A program made the position numbers and the translations under genes. From an uncultured Elusimicrobia bacterium (GTDB lineage: Bacteria; Elusimicrobiota; Elusimicrobia; 2-01-FULL-59-12), in contig OY969767.1 of NCBI GenBank assembly GCA_963702895.1, positions 2,400,001 to 2,464,000 on the forward strand: a stretch of 64,000 bases of DNA, written 5' to 3'. Below are positions 8,440 to 57,731 of this stretch, one piece after another (positions within the stretch are counted from its first letter, which is position 1; each line of letters begins with the position of its first letter). The notes under the pieces are model-generated. The model searched no databases, was not told the origin of the DNA, and saw nothing but the letters and a program-made list of their open reading frames with translations.

Positions 8440-8496
8440 ACGATCGAGGGCGGCGACAGAGCATTATCGAGCATCGGCCATGCCGGCCAATGTTAG

Positions 8497-8642
8497 CCCG
8501 AAATCTTCCATTGACCAGGTCCTGCCGTCTGAACCTGCCGCACTTTTTTGTGCCGTCACCCCGGCGAAAGCCGGGGTCCAGTTCAACGACGATGGACTGG
8601 ATCCCGGTTTTCACCGGGATGACGACAACTGCAGATTCCCGG
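8497..8642. mobile_element. 146-bp MITE (ends CCCGAAA...TTCCCGG) with TTAG target duplication, enclosing a cloverleaf palindrome
   Basis: TTAG at 8493-8496 and 8643-8646; internal GTCACCCCGGC...GGGATGAC at 8555-8623; aligns in reverse orientation with the 27251 element. Confidence 0.75.
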
Positions 8643-9203
8643 TTAGCGTGTTTTCTCGAATATCACTTCGCCGGCGAAGGCCGGGATTTTCTTCAAGTGA
8701 TAGGGCTGGATGGCAAACGGTGGGGTAAAGACACCCTGCATTTTTTTGATTTCCTTGTAGCGTACCACAAGCACCCTTTCTCCCCCCTCGCGCTCTTCTG
8801 TACGAATCTTTCGGATTTCGATTTCGAAGTTGGGGGTCCCCTTTTCGCCTAAGAAAACGCCCACCACCATCTCTCGATCGAAGTCGACCTGCGGCACGCG
8901 CGCAAGTTTGGGGGAATAAGGAGTCATCGCCTGCTGCCAGAAAGACGCCCATTTGTCTTGATGGCGAAAGGCGGCCAAGCGCGGCTCTTGGACAGCGCAC
9001 CGGAGGCCGCGCCACTCTCCGTCCTTGACAACCGGCTCCGGCAGGCGCAGGCCCGCCGGCGGCTCCGGCGGCAGAACGAGCTTCGGCAGAGGAAGATCGG
9101 TGAGCTCGGGGTCGCCGTCGGCAGCCAAGACGAGGGGTGAGGGGCGAAGGGCGAAGAGCGAAAAGAGAGCCGCGAAGAAAAATTTTCGAAGATCAGACTT
9201 CAA
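8643..9203 (-). CDS. Exported PrcB C-terminal domain protein
   Basis: Signal peptide; PQVDFDREMVVGVFLGEKGT...QPYHLKKIP pattern. Confidence 0.7.
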   Translation of the reverse strand: MKSDLRKFFFAALFSLFALRPSPLVLAADGDPELTDLPLPKLVLPPEPPAGLRLPEPVVKDGEWRGLRCAVQEPRLAAFRHQDKWASFWQQAMTPYSPKLARVPQVDFDREMVVGVFLGEKGTPNFEIEIRKIRTEEREGGERVLVVRYKEIKKMQGVFTPPFAIQPYHLKKIPAFAGEVIFEKTR

Positions 9204-12691: not shown

Positions 12692-12720
12692 TATGAATGT
12701 ACTCCGGGCTTGCCTTTGAC

Positions 12721-12803
12721 GTCATCCCGGCATGTTGTTAGCCGGGATCCATCATGATCTTTACGTTCATGATAGACCCCGGCTAACGATCCGCCGGGGT
12801 GAC
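12721..12803. repeat. Cloverleaf palindromic repeat (GTCAYCCC...GGGRTGAC family)
   Basis: gtcatcccggc..gccgggatccatcatg..catgatagaccccggc..gccggggtgac; sister copies at 8555, 27270, 50477, 56161. Confidence 0.85.
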
Positions 12804-12840
12804 GACAAGGGGTTCTTGTTGTGGAAAAAAGCATATCCTT

Positions 12841-26117: not shown

Positions 26118-27200
26118 GTGATCTTCAGCTCTCATGGCCTACGGAAGGCCTTCTTCGCCCTCCCTTTGATCGTCTTGAGCTCCCTCGATGCGTCCGATTC
26201 CTCCGGCAAGCGTCTTTGTGAAAAAGATTTTTCCTCCTATAAGAATCAACTCGCGAAGAACCCCTCCGATGATCTGACGTGGACAGAATTCAGGGTCTGC
26301 GCATCGGAACTTAAGAAGTGGGATGAAGCCATTCAGGTCGCGCTCCAGGCCAGACAGAAAAACAAAAACCTGCCCCAGCCTTATCTCATCCTCGGACTCG
26401 CCCAAATGCACCAGAAGAATTTTGAGAGAGCCATTGAGCATTTCGACCAAAGCATTGCCCTCAACTCCATGCAGCCCCTCGCCTACTTTCAAATGGGGAT
26501 GGCCTACCTTTTTCTCAATGAGCCGACCAAGGCGGCCCAAGCAGCAGAGCGAGCCATTGAACTCGACCCCACGAACTCCGCCTACCACAGGCAGCTGGCT
26601 TACACACGGCTCTTGCTGGACGATCTGTCGGGAGCAGAATTGTCGGCCAAGCGAGCCATCCAGTTGGACAAGGAGGACCTCGCGGCCCACAAGATCTTGG
26701 CGAAGATTTATACCAAGGCCGGCAACACCACAGGCGCGGCCTCTGAGCTCGCTTGGATCAAGTCGGCGGAGAGCGCCGCGGGGATTTCCCCGTCGGCACT
26801 TCCCACCCAAACAGAACCCTCTTCCATGAAAGCCAAGGATGACGGCGAGGACGAGGAGGAAAAGACAGGCAAACAAGAGGATTATCAGGTGATTGGGCAA
26901 TGCATCGGGCAGTGGACCCGGATGAAGAGCGCCGTTCTCCGTGGAAATTTGAACGAGTCACTGACCTATTATTCTGATTATCTCGATACGCGGGACCAAT
27001 ACCGCTCCTCTTTTGAGGCCATGGGGATGGAACGACTCAAGTCCATTTTCGGAAATTTCGGGGATCTTTACGATTGCGAAGTGGTGTTTGCCTCAGCCCA
27101 TTGCAAGGCGATGGTCCATGGTCCATCGGGCGCCGTCGTCGTCACAAAGATTCGATTTGAGAAAAATCCCGATAAAGTTTGGAGAATTCGATCTTTTTAA
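26118..27200 (+). CDS. Exported TPR-repeat protein
   Basis: Signal peptide, several TPR helix pairs, small C-terminal domain. Confidence 0.8.
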   Translation: MIFSSHGLRKAFFALPLIVLSSLDASDSSGKRLCEKDFSSYKNQLAKNPSDDLTWTEFRVCASELKKWDEAIQVALQARQKNKNLPQPYLILGLAQMHQKNFERAIEHFDQSIALNSMQPLAYFQMGMAYLFLNEPTKAAQAAERAIELDPTNSAYHRQLAYTRLLLDDLSGAELSAKRAIQLDKEDLAAHKILAKIYTKAGNTTGAASELAWIKSAESAAGISPSALPTQTEPSSMKAKDDGEDEEEKTGKQEDYQVIGQCIGQWTRMKSAVLRGNLNESLTYYSDYLDTRDQYRSSFEAMGMERLKSIFGNFGDLYDCEVVFASAHCKAMVHGPSGAVVVTKIRFEKNPDKVWRIRSF

Positions 27201-27483
27201 AGCCGCGTCGGTCGTGCCGATACCGCGCGGCTCACCCCGTATCTGATTAACCGGGAAACTGCAGTTGCCGTCACCCCGGCGGCCGCCAGCCGGGGTCTAT
27301 CAGACGTACAAAACCTGATGGATCCCCTGCTTACTACCGCAGGGGATGACGGCACTAAAAAGTGCACTGGGTTCAGACGGAGAGAATTGGCCAACTGCAG
27401 CGTAATATGAAAGCGGGCCTCAAGAGAGTTATAAACAAGGCTGTCGGTAAAGACACCTTAATAACCCCAGGAGGCCCAAAATC

Positions 27484-28527
27484 ATGATATCCATCGGCAT
27501 TGATCATCACAAGAAGTATTGTCAGGTTGTGGCTATGAGGGAGTCTGGCGAGATTGTATGGGAAGGTCAAGTCCCCACACGGCGAGAAGGTCTTGCACAA
27601 GTTAAAGAGGCGATTCCTCCAGGAGAACCGGTGCAAAGTGTATTGGAATCTGGACGGAGCTGGGGCATTGCCTATGACATTCTGGAAGATCTCGGGATGA
27701 ATCCGGTGTTGGCCAATCCTTATAGATCACGATTGATCGCCGACTCGTTTATCAAAACAGACAAAATCGATGCAACGGCACATGCCCTGCTGCTACGTTT
27801 GGGGGTGACCCCAACAATCCACGTGCCGAGTCGAGATCGGCGGGAACAGAAAGCGCTATTGCGGCACCGACTATGGCTAGTGAAGGGACAAACGGTGATC
27901 AAGAATCGAGTTCATGATTTACTCGACCGACTTCATGTTGACGTTCCCGAACGAAGCGACTTGTTTGGAGCGCATGGCCGGGCGTGGCTGAAGGCTTTGG
28001 AGCTTCCGGAGATGCACCAGCATTTATTGAGATCCCACATGGCATTGCTCGATGAGATTCGCGTCCAAATTCGAGCGACAGAAGAATGGATTGATCGGGT
28101 TTTAAGGGATCACCCTTTGCGCGAGCTTGTCGATTCATTTCCTGGGGTCGGCAAGATCTTAAGTGCTCTGATGGCCTTGGAAATTGACACCATTGAACGG
28201 TTTCCGACGGCTGCGCGGTTTGCATCGTACTGTGGCGTGGTGTGTAGTACCTACAGTTCAGGGGGTAAGACGTATCACGGAGGATTGATCCCGTCTTGTA
28301 ACCGCTATTTACGCTACGCATTAATCGAGGCCTGTTGGACGGCTGTATCTGTATCACCGTACTTTAAAGCCTTTTATCAGCAACGAAGAATTCGAAAGCT
28401 GTCATCGGTCGCTATTGTGGCAGTGGCCAGAAAGATGGCAGAGATCATGTGGGTATGCCTGAAGAACAAGAGGAAGTATAAGGAAAAGATGTATCGATTT
28501 GGTCGAGTCGCCTTGGCGAAATCTTAA
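27484..28527 (+). CDS. IS110-family recombinase/transposase
   Basis: DEDD motifs GIDHHK, VLES, KTDKIDA; PGVG; YCGV..YSSGG catalytic-Ser region; AVARK. Confidence 0.96.
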   Translation: MISIGIDHHKKYCQVVAMRESGEIVWEGQVPTRREGLAQVKEAIPPGEPVQSVLESGRSWGIAYDILEDLGMNPVLANPYRSRLIADSFIKTDKIDATAHALLLRLGVTPTIHVPSRDRREQKALLRHRLWLVKGQTVIKNRVHDLLDRLHVDVPERSDLFGAHGRAWLKALELPEMHQHLLRSHMALLDEIRVQIRATEEWIDRVLRDHPLRELVDSFPGVGKILSALMALEIDTIERFPTAARFASYCGVVCSTYSSGGKTYHGGLIPSCNRYLRYALIEACWTAVSVSPYFKAFYQQRRIRKLSSVAIVAVARKMAEIMWVCLKNKRKYKEKMYRFGRVALAKS

Positions 28528-28727
28528 CGGAAGCCGCGTTTAACTGCAGCGTAAGGGACCCGGCCTCGAACCATTACAGTGTCCAGACGTCGTGGACGAA
28601 GAAAAGTGTGAGTACAGCTTAAGCATCAAGACGAGGCGACGGTAAGAAAAACGCTCAAATAGCTAGTCGCACCACGGCCTACTTCAAAGGCAAGGAGAGA
28701 CCTTTTGTCATTAAAGAATTTACTTGC
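28528..28727 (+). ncRNA. Candidate bridge/seek RNA region of the IS1111-type element
   Basis: Position typical of IS1111; contains aactgcag (left target+core), agaaaag (left donor+core) and acgct (reverse complement of core+right donor). Confidence 0.6.
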
Positions 28728-28788
28728 GCCCGCTTTCAGAAAAGTTTTCGGGTTAACAGACCGCAAGGGTGCTTTTTTCAGGAGACGT

Positions 28789-29994
28789 CTAGCTGGAACC
28801 CCTCGGCCGAATGGCCAGAACGAGCGCGTTGGCCACGGGCCTGCCACCTTCGAAGTAACGCTCATCCGCGGGGGCTTCTCCTTGCTGCGCGAAGATCGCA
28901 CGCGACCTCCCCCCATCGAGCGCGATCGCCTCTTGAACGTTCATCTTGGAGAGCACGTAAGCCAATTGTTCATAGGACAAATTGCCGTTTGAATTTTTAT
29001 GGGCCCAAAGCAAGACGATATCACCGTTCGCTTTCTCTGCCAGGGCAACACGGTCGCGACTTTTGAGCGTATGCAAACGCTCTTGTTGCGCCGTCACTTG
29101 AATCTGGCCACGTTCGATCAGGCGCGGCCCAGCCAGAAGACCATGCACGATCTCTTGGGATGACCAGGCGGCTGGCAGCGACCAGGTGGCACGAACGAGA
29201 GCGCCACTCCTCAGGAGACTGGCACTGGCCCGCGCATCGCCGTGCAAAGCGACCACCAGGCCGTCCGGTGGGATCCGAAGGGGCCCCTGCCGAAAGTGGT
29301 CCTGGATTCGGTAGATCCCAGGCCGTGCGGGCTCGCTCTGTGCCGTGAGATAAATTGCATCACGAGGAATTCTGAGAAGTTTCCCATAGAGGGGCGTGAA
29401 AAGCGTCAGCGCGTTTTTTCCCCCAGGAATGTTGATATGGTGGACGGCGATTTTGGCCGCGCGGAAAGGCTTCCCCTTCCCTACGGCGAAGGTCTCCATC
29501 CAGACCTTCGGCATCTGACGAGGCGAGGCGATGTGGAGGCGGGCCCGCGTAAGTCCGCCCTTCGAATCGCTAAATCCGACCATGCTTCGGGTAAAGCCCT
29601 GGGGCATGTTAAAGAATTCCATTTTCCGATCACGCATGAGAAACCCGATCGGGAGCCCTGTGGCCGTATCAAAAAATCCCCCGTTAATAGCCGCAATCAC
29701 GGTCCACCGGGTCTGCGCGCTAAAACGCCGGGCGATTTCACGGATGGACTCCGTCCCCGGGCCCTGGTCCCGGTAGAAGGGCACAGGGATAAGTTCCAGG
29801 CTCTCGGATCGCGCGCTGGCTGTGACATACTTGAGCGTGAGGTCCCCTTGCCTCTTGATAATAAAGCGTCCCGTACCGTTTGAGACGAGCCCATTCTGCC
29901 AGAACGTCGGAACGGAACGCTCCGGCTGGTCGACCAAGAGGGCCGAGACCAGAGCACAACAACCCAGGAGAAGGCGTTCCTTAGAGATGTTCAT
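28789..29994 (-). CDS. Phosphodiester glycosidase (NAGPA-like) family protein
   Basis: AAINGGFFD, AGPRLI, ALDGGRS, RPVANAL. Confidence 0.85.
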   Translation of the reverse strand: MNISKERLLLGCCALVSALLVDQPERSVPTFWQNGLVSNGTGRFIIKRQGDLTLKYVTASARSESLELIPVPFYRDQGPGTESIREIARRFSAQTRWTVIAAINGGFFDTATGLPIGFLMRDRKMEFFNMPQGFTRSMVGFSDSKGGLTRARLHIASPRQMPKVWMETFAVGKGKPFRAAKIAVHHINIPGGKNALTLFTPLYGKLLRIPRDAIYLTAQSEPARPGIYRIQDHFRQGPLRIPPDGLVVALHGDARASASLLRSGALVRATWSLPAAWSSQEIVHGLLAGPRLIERGQIQVTAQQERLHTLKSRDRVALAEKANGDIVLLWAHKNSNGNLSYEQLAYVLSKMNVQEAIALDGGRSRAIFAQQGEAPADERYFEGGRPVANALVLAIRPRGSS

Positions 29995-50465: not shown

Positions 50466-50660
50466 CCCAAATGTTCGTCACCCCGGCGGATTGTTAGCCG
50501 GCCCTCCAGACGCCCGGCGGGCCGTCCGCCCTGCCGTGTGGCGGACGGAGTCTATCATCGACGAAAAAGACATGATGGATCCCGGCTTTCGCCGGGATGA
50601 CGGCATAGTAGAGTTTGCTTATTACGGACGATAACACCGTTTCATTCGACAATTTTCGGG
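50466..50660. mobile_element. Degenerate third MITE copy with cloverleaf palindrome and a nested hairpin insert
   Basis: Right end TTTTCGGG|TTAA; palindrome 50477-50601 with ~47 extra bp (about 50502-50548); left end degenerate. Confidence 0.55.
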
Positions 50661-55727: not shown

Positions 55728-56144
55728 TTATGGTTTGATGATTTCCGGTCCTTTGCTCACGCCGGGCGGGATGATTATATCAGGGCCTTTTTTCTCCGTC
55801 GCCTTTTCGGCGGACGCCTCGGACTTGCGGACTTCGTCAGCAAAGTTGAGCTCCAGGTCGGACACCAGGTTGTCGAGCATCTCCTGTTCTTTGACGCTCA
55901 AGTTTCCTTCCGTCTTTTCCTGAAGCATGCGCAAGAACTCAATCGAGATGCGGGCCTGATCGATGTCCTTTTCGATCTTCTGGGTCACCGGATGGGGCAC
56001 TTTCCCCAGCTGCGCCCAGGCGGCAGACCCCAAGGACATCACCAGCGTCAAAAACCGGTAATCGTCCACAACGCTATCAGGCGGACGAGCGCCTGTTGTG
56101 TGGCGCTCGGCTTCTCCTGGCATTTCAATTTTTTCTTCTGACAC
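55728..56144 (-). CDS. DUF1844 family protein
   Basis: LGKVPHP...ARISIEFLRMLQEKTEGNL...L.LNF; GTG after AGGAGG. Confidence 0.85.
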   Translation of the reverse strand: MSEEKIEMPGEAERHTTGARPPDSVVDDYRFLTLVMSLGSAAWAQLGKVPHPVTQKIEKDIDQARISIEFLRMLQEKTEGNLSVKEQEMLDNLVSDLELNFADEVRKSEASAEKATEKKGPDIIIPPGVSKGPEIIKP

Positions 56145-56160
56145 AACCACCCTCCTTGCC

Positions 56161-56244
56161 GTCACCCCAGCGGATTGTGAGCCGGGGTCCATCGTTATTG
56201 GCGTAGGCATGATGGATCCCCCACTTACAGCCGTGGGGGATGAC
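56161..56244. repeat. Cloverleaf palindromic repeat (GTCAYCCC family)
   Basis: gtcaccccagc..gccggggtccatc..gatggatcccc..gggggatgac. Confidence 0.85.
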
Positions 56245-56246
56245 AC

Positions 56247-57731
56247 CTAGATTACTTTTGCCTGCAAAAGTTGTTGGGCCTTCTTAATACGCTCGAGCGT
56301 GCGTTTCTTTCCTAAAAATTCCACCATGTGCCAAAGGCTTGGCCCTTCCGTCCGCCCGGACACGCAAACGCGCAAGGGATGAAACACGGCACCGTTCTTG
56401 ACCCCTTTATCTTTGGCCAAGGTCTTGCATAGGTTCTCAATGCCCGGCACGTCAAAGGGCTCAAGCGCCGCCAGGCGCTTGACAAGTTCTTCGATGATCC
56501 CCGCAGCACCCTCGGCGCGAAGCACTTTGCCCACCGCCTCCTCTCGATACTCGTAATCATCCCAGAGAAGAAAATCCGTGAGCTTCGGAACATCCGAGAG
56601 CAGCTTGACTTTTTCGAGCTCGAGGGCGACCGCTGCCTCATAAGTGGACGCAGGCACAGCGGATATGTCTTTGCCCTTGTAGAAGGGTTCCGCCAGGGCA
56701 GCCAGTTCCCGAGCGGACGTTTTGCGGATGTATTCGCCGTTCATCCACAAAAGCTTCGTGGGATCAAAGGTCGCGGCGCTTTTGCCGCAGCGTTCAATCT
56801 GAAATTTTTCCACCATCTCTTGCTGCGTGAACAGCTGCTGGCTGTCTTCGGTCCCCCAGCCAAGAAGAGCGAGATAATTCAGCAGCGCGTTCGGGAGATA
56901 CCCCGCGTCCCGGTACTCCGTGACAGAGGTCGCGCCATGCCGCTTGGAGAGCCGGGCGCCATCGGAACCCAGGATCATCGCCAGATGCGCAAATTGTGGC
57001 ACCTGCCAGCCCAGCGCCTCGTAAACGAGCATCTGCCGCGGCGTGTTGGAGAGGTGGTCATCGCCGCGGATCACATGGCTGATCTTCATGAGATGGTCGT
57101 CCACCACGCAAGCGAAGTTGTAGGTCGGCACCCCCGTCGACTTGAGGACCACGAAATCTTCCATGAGAGCATTCTCAAAAACTTTGACGCCATGGATGAG
57201 ATCCGTAAAGCGCGTCTCGCCCACATGCGGGGTCTTAAAACGGATGGATTTCTTCCGCCCCTGGGCTTCCTTGGCTTTTCGCTCATCAGCGCTCAGGTTG
57301 CGGCACCTGCCGTCATACTTGGGAGGCCTTTTGGCAAGGAGCGCGAGCTCCCGCATTTTCTCCACTTCTTCTGGAGTGCAGTAACAGGGATAGGCAAACC
57401 CCTTCTTCAGCAGCTCGTCGCACGCGGCCCAATAGCCTGCCAGGCGTTGCATCTGATAGTAGGGACCATAGTCGCCCTTCACTCCTCTGCCATCGGCGGT
57501 TGGCCCTTCGTCCCAATCGAGGCCCAGCCACTTCATGGACTCGAGGATCCCGTTGACAGACTCATCTGTGGAGCGCACTTCATCGGTATCTTCAATCCGA
57601 AGAATGAACGTCCCCTGATGGTGACGGGCAAAGAGCCAGTTAAACAGGGCTGTACGCGCCCCGCCGATATGGAGGAAACCCGTGGGCGAAGGCGCAAACC
57701 GGACGCGGATAGACGGTTTATCCATAGACAT
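56247..57731 (-). CDS. gltX: Glutamate--tRNA ligase
   Basis: RFAPSPTGFLHIGG, RIEDTD, HVIRGDDH, LSKR. Confidence 0.97.
   Translation of the reverse strand: MSMDKPSIRVRFAPSPTGFLHIGGARTALFNWLFARHHQGTFILRIEDTDEVRSTDESVNGILESMKWLGLDWDEGPTADGRGVKGDYGPYYQMQRLAGYWAACDELLKKGFAYPCYCTPEEVEKMRELALLAKRPPKYDGRCRNLSADERKAKEAQGRKKSIRFKTPHVGETRFTDLIHGVKVFENALMEDFVVLKSTGVPTYNFACVVDDHLMKISHVIRGDDHLSNTPRQMLVYEALGWQVPQFAHLAMILGSDGARLSKRHGATSVTEYRDAGYLPNALLNYLALLGWGTEDSQQLFTQQEMVEKFQIERCGKSAATFDPTKLLWMNGEYIRKTSARELAALAEPFYKGKDISAVPASTYEAAVALELEKVKLLSDVPKLTDFLLWDDYEYREEAVGKVLRAEGAAGIIEELVKRLAALEPFDVPGIENLCKTLAKDKGVKNGAVFHPLRVCVSGRTEGPSLWHMVEFLGKKRTLERIKKAQQLLQAKVI

Follow-up and report, generated by a model that had tools for sequence, protein, structure and literature searches.

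RNA-guided targeting by insertion sequences (IS) of the IS110/IS1111 type was published in 2024 (PMC11187229; PMC11208160). In IS1111 elements the RNA is encoded at the right end, and the top-strand match of the seekRNA lies 5' of its bottom-strand match (PMC11187229). The group is further recognised by subterminal inverted repeats of 7-17 bp (PMC11208160) and by a recombinase of 330-350 aa with the motif GL-P----S(t)G (PMC11187229). A preference for repeated DNA, namely for repetitive extragenic palindromes (REP), has been described for ISPa11 and IS621 (PMC11187229; PMC11208160). Here we describe an element of this type in a stretch of 64,000 nucleotides, called hereafter the window, from an uncultured Elusimicrobia bacterium (assembly GCA_963702895.1, contig OY969767.1, positions 2,400,001 to 2,464,000), whose genome is a single contig of 2.72 Mb. 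Positions 27401-28744 of the window form an insertion sequence of 1344 bp, one AG core copy at the right end included. With a probability of roughly 0.85, we read it as an intact, recently active IS1111-group member of the IS110 family, encoding a recombinase and a two-loop bridge RNA (seekRNA) aimed at the ends of a repeat that resembles a miniature inverted-repeat transposable element (MITE). It is a clean new example of the RNA-guided mechanism described in 2024, and not a new mechanism.

ISEc11, ISPa11 and ISKpn4, as described by Siddiquee et al. 2024 (PMC11187229), resemble this element in having a DEDD recombinase of about 340 aa, subterminal inverted repeats and, downstream of the tnp gene, a long non-coding region (NCR) that holds the guides. 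Their seekRNAs are likewise built with the top-strand match 5' of the bottom-strand match, the two overlapping at the insertion point (PMC11187229). As reported there, ISPa11 also has its target in repeated, foldable DNA (REP), and the retargeting between the close relatives ISEc11 and ISXne4 parallels that between two sister elements, A and B, of the present genome (PMC11187229). The present case differs from ISEc11, ISPa11 and ISKpn4 in that the target loop and the donor loop are both supported by covariation, and in having a MITE-like element's terminal repeat as its target. IS4321 and IS5075 reportedly target the terminal repeats of Tn21-family transposons. Compared by description only, they too are IS1111-group elements whose specific target, entered in one orientation, is the terminal repeat of another mobile element; here, however, that target is a non-autonomous, many-copy repeat of about 150-215 bp and not a Tn3-family transposon.

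IS621 (Durrant et al. 2024, PMC11208160; Hiraizumi et al. 2024, PMC11208158) is likewise described with two internal loops, in each of which the left guide has the sequence of the top strand and the right guide is complementary to that strand, and further with a 2-nt core inside the guides, a circle-junction promoter (putative in our case) and the serine nucleophile (S259 here, S241 in IS621). In contrast, its RNA is encoded at the left end and ours at the right, and the order of the loop sides is reversed here, with the right guide 5' and the left guide 3'. Its core is CT and ours AG, and its subterminal repeat measures 2-3 bp versus 11 bp. Moreover, our left-target guide is followed by nucleotides of the donor left end, whereas in IS621 handshake guides follow the right guides (PMC11208158). 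Finally, ISPpu9 of Pseudomonas putida (PMC12288879) is an IS110-family element reported to lie in repetitive extragenic sequences and to have, downstream of its transposase gene, a gene for a small RNA. Extra orphan copies of this RNA gene are described, whereas our RNA model finds only five copies, all inside elements.

The element, its copies and its recombinase

Comparison of the genome with itself revealed three copies of the element, A1 (in the window), A2 and A3, which are 100% identical over 1344 bp and have open frames in all three. A sister element, B, is present in two identical copies (B1 and B2) and matches A at 83% over the first 1222 nt. A1 is inserted between ggccAACTGCAG and TTTTCGGGTTAA, A2 between gacaACTGCAG and ATTCCCGGTTAG, and A3 between gactACTGCAG and ATTCCCGGTTAA, so that all three A copies are found at xACTGCAG/WTTYCSGGTTA (the slash marks the insertion point), at the same position and in the same orientation within repeat ends. 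All five A and B copies are oriented toward the repeat terminus. In the window, the host MITE-like element spans 27247-28756 and the IS sits at an AG inside its terminal repeat.

A preliminary description, made from the letters of the window alone, had anticipated much of this. Excision of 27401-28744 does restore the site, ggccAACTGCAG being joined to TTTTCGGGTTAA, and the opposite end of the same repeat (27247-27268) reads ggcaACTGCAGTTTCCCGGTTAA in reverse complement, as it had stated. The matching copy it had placed at 8497 is an element at about 8494-8646, of which positions 8626-8646 end with acAACTGCAGATTCCCGGTTAG and form a free, unoccupied A-type target. The flanks of A2 and A3 (acAACTGCAG and acTACTGCAG on the left) are those it had expected around other copies of the IS. 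AG is the sole sequence common to both junctions (left ...CTGCAG/CGTAAT; right ...GAAAAG/ATTCC or /TTTTC), which is consistent with the 2-nt core that it had deduced.

The tips of the element, CGTAATA and GAAAAG, form no inverted repeat, and there is no target duplication beyond AG. The element has a subterminal inverted repeat of 11 nt, 100% complementary, set back from the left tip by 7 nt and from the right tip by 6 nt. The NCR downstream of the recombinase gene is 217 nt long (28528-28744), versus 83 nt upstream (27401-27483). The 13-nt sequence AACTGCAGCGTAA of the left junction (27393-27405) recurs exactly, as a direct repeat, at 28542-28554.

The recombinase gene is preceded, 9 nt upstream, by GGAGG. 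Its product matched Pfam PF01548 (DEDD_Tnp_IS110, 6.8e-19) and PF02371 (Transposase_20, 2.6e-22), as well as the NCBIfam family NF033542 "IS110 family RNA-guided transposase" with 229 bits (cut-off 140). Alignment to the solved structures of ISCro4 and IS621 covered residues 171-328 and placed S259 on the catalytic S241 of IS621. Among 42 relatives, E55, D93 and D96 were invariant and D7 was at least 90% conserved; these would be the residues of the DEDD tetrad. The protein has 347 aa, within the 330-350 aa of the IS1111 group, and the stretch compared with the group motif reads GVVCSTYSSG, in which SG is present but C stands in place of P. On anatomical grounds the element is placed in the IS1111 group, the subterminal inverted repeats and the longer downstream NCR both agreeing with it. 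A total of 534 protein relatives were gathered, the best non-self match being 86% identical. In 72,556 plasmid records the closest relative was only 36% identical, and the plasmid matches were annotated merely as "IS110 family". A single-protein search of genome contigs returned one distant locus only and was not used.

A probable guide RNA whose loops covary with flanks and ends

Eighty metagenomic loci with 39-71% identity to the recombinase were retrieved. A profile, and later a covariance model, was built on positions 28498-28628, the preliminary description having proposed a covariance model of 28528-28727 across homologs. Of the 80 loci, 77 contained the RNA region, downstream of the stop codon or overlapping it, the three misses being contigs that end at or just past the stop. 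In its own genome, the covariance model matched only the five elements A1-A3 and B1-B2.

RNAalifold, run on a plain MAFFT alignment, recovered a single helix (P1), because the hairpins were misaligned. A structure with four helices (P1 to P4) was drawn by hand from the alignment and given to the covariance model, and pairs were counted on the model's alignment (80 sequences, 73 distinct), which was fitted to the drawn structure and so favours it. Standard pairs occupied 88.8% of the cells in the four helices, versus 76.0% after shuffling (none of 500 shuffles reached the observed value). Changes on both sides were seen in 23 of 27 pairs, and when partners were slid by 1-3 columns, pairing fell to 52% or less. 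From these slid controls and the number of pair types, we argue that the four-helix structure is real. P1 and P2 frame loop 1, and P3 and P4 frame loop 2, both being simple internal loops. In the A-type RNA, an alternative pairing of GGTCGAG with CTCGAACC (28565-28572) is also possible.

The match of the loops to DNA was measured in the 45 loci for which both ends could be set, namely the window, B2 and 43 relatives, out of 69 aligned sequences; the others had no flank or no recognisable end. As a control, each loop side was compared with the flanks of other loci, with 10,000 permutations. One locus (L063), whose left end was wrongly assigned, was kept in the target-flank counts and dropped from later ones. 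The longest string that the 3' side of loop 1 shared with its own left flank averaged 7.56 nt, versus 4.11 nt for mismatched pairs, and none of the permutations reached 7.56 nt. Strings of at least 7 nt were found for 35 of 45 own left flanks and for 44 of 1968 mismatched pairs. Similarly, the reverse complement of the 5' side of loop 1 shared 6.67 nt on average with its own right flank, versus 3.94 nt (0/10,000 permutations), and strings of at least 7 nt were found for 20 of 45 own right flanks, versus 75 of 1932 mismatched ones. Directly after the right-target guide stands a T (28525), complementary to the final A that precedes the core at the element's right end.

Loop 2 was compared with the ends of the element itself. 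In 43 of 45 loci, the element ends in the same 7 nt that precede the closing helix of this loop. Four sequence variants are represented, and the minority variants of the right end, AGAGAAG (5 loci), AGAAGAG (3) and ATAAAAG (2), were mirrored exactly in the loop. Its 5' side contains the reverse complement of the left-end tetramer, which varies among relatives (TAAT, TAGT, TAAC, TAGG, TGGT, TAGC and others). The mean string shared by the right-donor guide and the left end was 4.18 nt, versus 3.10 nt in the control (0/10,000 permutations, 44 loci).

Two of the guides named in the preliminary description, aactgcag at 28542-28549 (left target with core) and agaaaag at 28600-28606 (left donor with core), are thus present and supported, the former by covariation of loop and flank, the latter by its identity with the element end. 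The two others were replaced. The motif acgct at 28651-28655, proposed as the right-donor guide, falls in a segment (28622-28687) that cannot be aligned between A and B and that lies outside the conserved RNA; that guide is found at 28573-28577 instead. The weak candidate for the right-target guide, gaaaa at 28646, belongs to the same unconserved spacer and gives way to 28517-28524. Coordinates of all features are collected in Table 1.

Table 1. Features of the insertion sequence, its guide RNA and its host repeat (window positions).
Feature	Position	Strand	Basis or remark
MITE-like repeat, left part: left terminal repeat TTAACCGGGAAACTGCAGTTGCC and body to the insertion point	27247..27400	.	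nhmmer match 27248-27399
AG core, left junction	27399..27400	+	same dinucleotide closes the element at 28743-28744; AG invariant at the guide core position in 69/69 aligned sequences
IS1111-type insertion sequence	27401..28744	+	three 100% identical copies; flanks
Putative -10 (TAATAT) of the circle-junction promoter	27403..27408	+	would form only on joined ends; TTGCGC-17-TAATAT
Left subterminal inverted repeat TGAAAGCGGGC	27408..27418	+	100% complementary to 28728-28738
Recombinase gene, 347 aa; DEDD/RuvC-like N-terminal and Transposase_20 C-terminal domain	27484..28527	+	Pfam, NCBIfam, structure alignment
Helix P1, 5' strand, in the last recombinase codons	28502..28514 (28502-28509, 28511-28514)	+	12 pairs, 10 changed on both sides, 97% of cells paired
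Right-target guide CGAAATCT	28517..28524	+	reverse complement of AG+ATTTCG; family-wide match to right flanks
Helix P2, small hairpin closing loop 1	28526..28540 (28526-28530 with 28536-28540)	+	5 pairs, all changed on both sides
Left-target guide AACTGCAG (AACTGC and core AG)	28542..28549	+	loop-flank match; followed by CGT (to 28552), the first 3 nt of the element
Helix P1, 3' strand	28553..28564	+	pairs with the 5' strand
Helix P3, 5' strand	28565..28569 (with 28608-28612)	+	5 pairs, 3 changed on both sides, 80% of cells paired
Right-donor guide ATTAC	28573..28577	+	reverse complement of GTAAT at 27402-27406
Helix P4, hairpin closing loop 2 (GTCCA...TGGAC)	28581..28597 (28581-28585 with 28593-28597)	+	covariation; fold
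Left-donor guide AGAAAAG	28600..28606	+	identical to the last 7 nt of the element (28738-28744)
Variable spacer, from the conserved RNA to the right end	28613..28723	+	A and B unalignable at 28622-28687; outside the conserved model
Putative -35 (TTGCGC) of the circle-junction promoter	28724..28729	+	predicted from joined ends
Right subterminal inverted repeat GCCCGCTTTCA	28728..28738	+	complementary to 27408-27418
MITE-like repeat, outermost 12 nt of the right terminal repeat (TTTTCGGGTTAA)	28745..28756	.	flank comparison

The 5' strand of P1 and the entire right-target guide lie inside the last nine recombinase codons (...GRVALAKS*; 28502-28527), where B reads ...ALSKS*. Therefore, retargeting of the right guide alters the C-terminal tail of the protein. 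In some relatives, the guide RNA lies wholly downstream of the stop codon.

A scan of the integrated copy found no sigma-70-like promoter and no terminator on the + strand. A junction promoter is known for this family, as reported in the cited accounts (PMC11187229; PMC13626964), and the guide RNA is probably made from a promoter formed by the joined ends. The predicted circle junction of the element reads ...TTTCAGAAA-AG-CGTAATATG..., and the same joining of ends in relatives yields TTGACx-17-TAnnAT with a score of at least 9/12 in 30 of 41 cases.

The host repeat, the sister element and the core

The repeat that hosts the element is short, non-coding and present in many copies, the complete ones measuring 152-215 bp, with inverted termini TARCCGGRAATCT... 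A single-copy query gave 148 matches in the genome (nhmmer), and 47 matches of a second-round profile made from those span nearly the whole repeat. Copies have TA at both sides, which may be a TA duplication or a part of the repeat. Pieces of the family were also found in related genomes of the same taxonomic family. Within the window, besides the copy at about 8494-8646, other copies or fragments are located at 12702-12810, 50475-50660 and 56128-56249.

Uninterrupted counterparts of the joined flanks were sought in the genome: 57 sites correspond to N8-AG-WTTYCSGGYTA and 21 to ACTGCAG-WTTYC, candidate targets of the A element being AACTGCAGATTCCCGG and AACTGCAGTTTTCGGG. The uninterrupted sites are ends of the MITE-like repeat. 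One free repeat end matches, with one mismatch, the ideal 14-nt site that follows from the two target guides. With two mismatches there are 31 sites, of which 14 are followed by a repeat terminus, and a uniform model expects 16.6.

Two further groups of IS110-family elements, unrelated to this one, occur in the genome, inside MITE-like repeats at other positions. The first comprises five copies of about 1270 bp (L026-L030, near 91016, 153019, 445427, 504732 and 1715949) and the second three copies of about 1190 bp (L023-L025, near 130930, 180053 and 1126197). One of the two groups splits a hairpin between CCGGCTTTCGCC and GGGGTGACG, and the other lies in a repeat of the form CCCTCACCC...GGGAGAGGGG. 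The repeat superfamily seems to be a landing pad for several RNA-guided lineages of the IS110 family.

The main difference between the conserved RNAs of A and B is the left-target guide, AAACTGAG in B for AACTGCAG in A (A reads TAACTGCAG and B reads TAAACTGAG). The B copies sit after CAACAGAG and GAACCGAG, in repeat ends other than those of A, their left flanks being GTCAACAGAG and AGAACCGAG, each followed by ATTCC. As judged from guide and flanks, the A/B pair is a case of natural retargeting between sister elements. The two are identical over about the first 350 nt, which cover the left end and some 85 codons (27401-27750 of the window and 1501-1850 of the B locus L005), and about 80% alike thereafter. 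They are therefore mosaics, probably through recombination of both lineages within this genome. In addition, a short contig from a freshwater-sediment DNA run matches the right end of the element (28708-28756) and runs on into the right flank of A3, so the same or a very close strain was present in that run. The contigs obtained from two DNA runs were short only and contained no joints.

The junction dinucleotides of B1 and B2 are unequal, AG at the left junction and apparently AA at the right one (L005, about 1495-1505 and 2835-2850; L004). Both B sites are one A short of the usual free ends (ACAGAAG/ATT and ACCGAAG/ATT, of which there are at least 14), and the right end of B is one A longer than that of A, its left-donor guide being unchanged. 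The simplest account is a crossover of B one nucleotide to the left, at AA, which would leave AG on the left and AA on the right. Alternatively, B may have entered rare sites of the shortened form, its additional A arising by slippage. No free repeat end of the shortened form was found in the genome, the two matches to AACNGAGATTYC not being repeat ends. When empty orthologous sites of B were looked for in 10 genomes from the same taxonomic family, the only matches were MITE pieces, and no orthologous flank was found. In a relative (L032), AG stands on the left and GG on the right, and the right-target guide encodes GG (near 223-230 and 1480-1495).

B and L032, with AG at the left junction and AA or GG at the right, are the informative lineages for a different view of the core, in which AG would belong to the donor rather than being shared, and crossover in IS1111-type elements would differ from that of IS621. 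It is based on the sequence after the left-target guide, which is always AG and then 2-3 nt from the left end of the element itself. When the two nucleotides that follow the core in this guide were compared with the first two of the element, 57 of 86 positions agreed, versus 29 of 86 in the comparison with the first two of the right flank. We consider this view doubtful. If true, exchange would take place at the 5' edge of the "core", or the bottom strand would be exchanged first, with a handshake guide on the left-guide side.

Competing interpretations and significance

Anatomy, copy identity, the identical insertion position, and the covariation of helices and guides in relatives can be read directly from the sequences. 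Together with the domains of the protein, they agree with the earlier proposal of an intact recombinase, apparently RNA-guided, aimed at a resident MITE family. In the mechanism that we propose, a bridge RNA of about 110 nt, starting inside the last recombinase codons, would fold into two hairpins, each with an internal loop. Loop 1 would read the target, its 5' side CGAAATCT pairing with the top strand to the right of the AG core and its 3' side AACTGCAG with the bottom strand to the left. Loop 2 would read the joined ends of the excised circle, ATTAC pairing with GTAAT of the left end and AGAAAAG with the right end. The preferred target, about AACTGC-AG-ATTYCS, would be the inner part of the terminal repeat of the abundant MITE-like repeat, and therefore the element would land in those ends, in one orientation. 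We infer that the RNA is made, that the recombinase binds it and that it directs recombination.

Several observations weigh against this interpretation. The sites occupied by A1, A2 and A3 have 1, 2 and 3 mismatches, respectively, to the 14-nt ideal, and a perfect site is absent from the genome; recognition must therefore be tolerant. The element ends of relatives were set partly by a family motif, and the relatives are kin, so that the permutation counts overstate independence. An Rfam scan of 26500-29500 with E up to 1 gave no match, and the single-sequence fold was not more stable than shuffled sequences (z = 0.49). In A-type RNA, helix P1 contains an A.C mismatch and a G.U pair (28506/28561 and 28503/28562), whereas B and the 71% identical relative L032 pair perfectly. 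Finally, the A-type junction promoter (TTGCGC, 17-nt spacer, TAATAT) scores only 7/12.

The weak P1 and the weak junction promoter could also mean that the A copies are real RNA-guided elements that are now crippled and no longer move. Their -35 is TTGCGC where the family has TTGACx, and just three of at least 24 suitable repeat ends are occupied. However, the three copies are identical over 1344 bp at three sites, with intact frames. Transposition must therefore have occurred after the changes in P1 and promoter arose, unless gene conversion spread the copies, and we regard loss of activity as unlikely. It is less probable still that only loop 1, as a short seekRNA, is at work, the protein reading the ends through the subterminal inverted repeats and the loop-2 matches being by-products of conserved ends. 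A short seekRNA of 82 nt is reported as sufficient for ISEc11 movement (Siddiquee et al., PMC11187229). The right end TTTCAGAAAAG is so highly conserved that 33 of 45 left-donor guide matches come without covariation, and the right-donor match is just 4-5 nt. Against this stand the exact mirroring, in loop 2, of the right-end variants AGAGAAG, AGAAGAG and ATAAAAG, that of the left-end tetramers by its 5' side, and the covariation of P3 and P4, which frame it. Site-specific insertion by the protein alone, with the 13-nt junction copy in the 3' end as a fossil rearrangement or a chance repeat, was already disfavoured and is hardly tenable: one genome alone cannot separate the readings and the 13-nt repeat could in principle be a duplicated junction, but in 35 of 45 loci with unrelated flanks, at least 7 nt are common to the same loop position and the left flank of that locus (versus 44 of 1968 mismatched pairs), the left-target segment is framed by covarying helices, and B changes this segment and its flanks together.

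An intact, recently active element with a two-loop bridge RNA, the interpretation that we favour, would be a well-resolved natural case of a mechanism known since 2024. It combines a compact recombinase of 347 aa, a guide RNA of about 110 nt and an AG core in an uncultivated lineage. IS1111-type bridge recombinases are far less studied than IS621, and the 40-odd natural relatives, in which guides, targets and ends are readable side by side, may yield programming rules for them. In a single genome, we see natural retargeting together with a MITE family that seems to serve as a landing pad, biology that is expected for the IS110 family.

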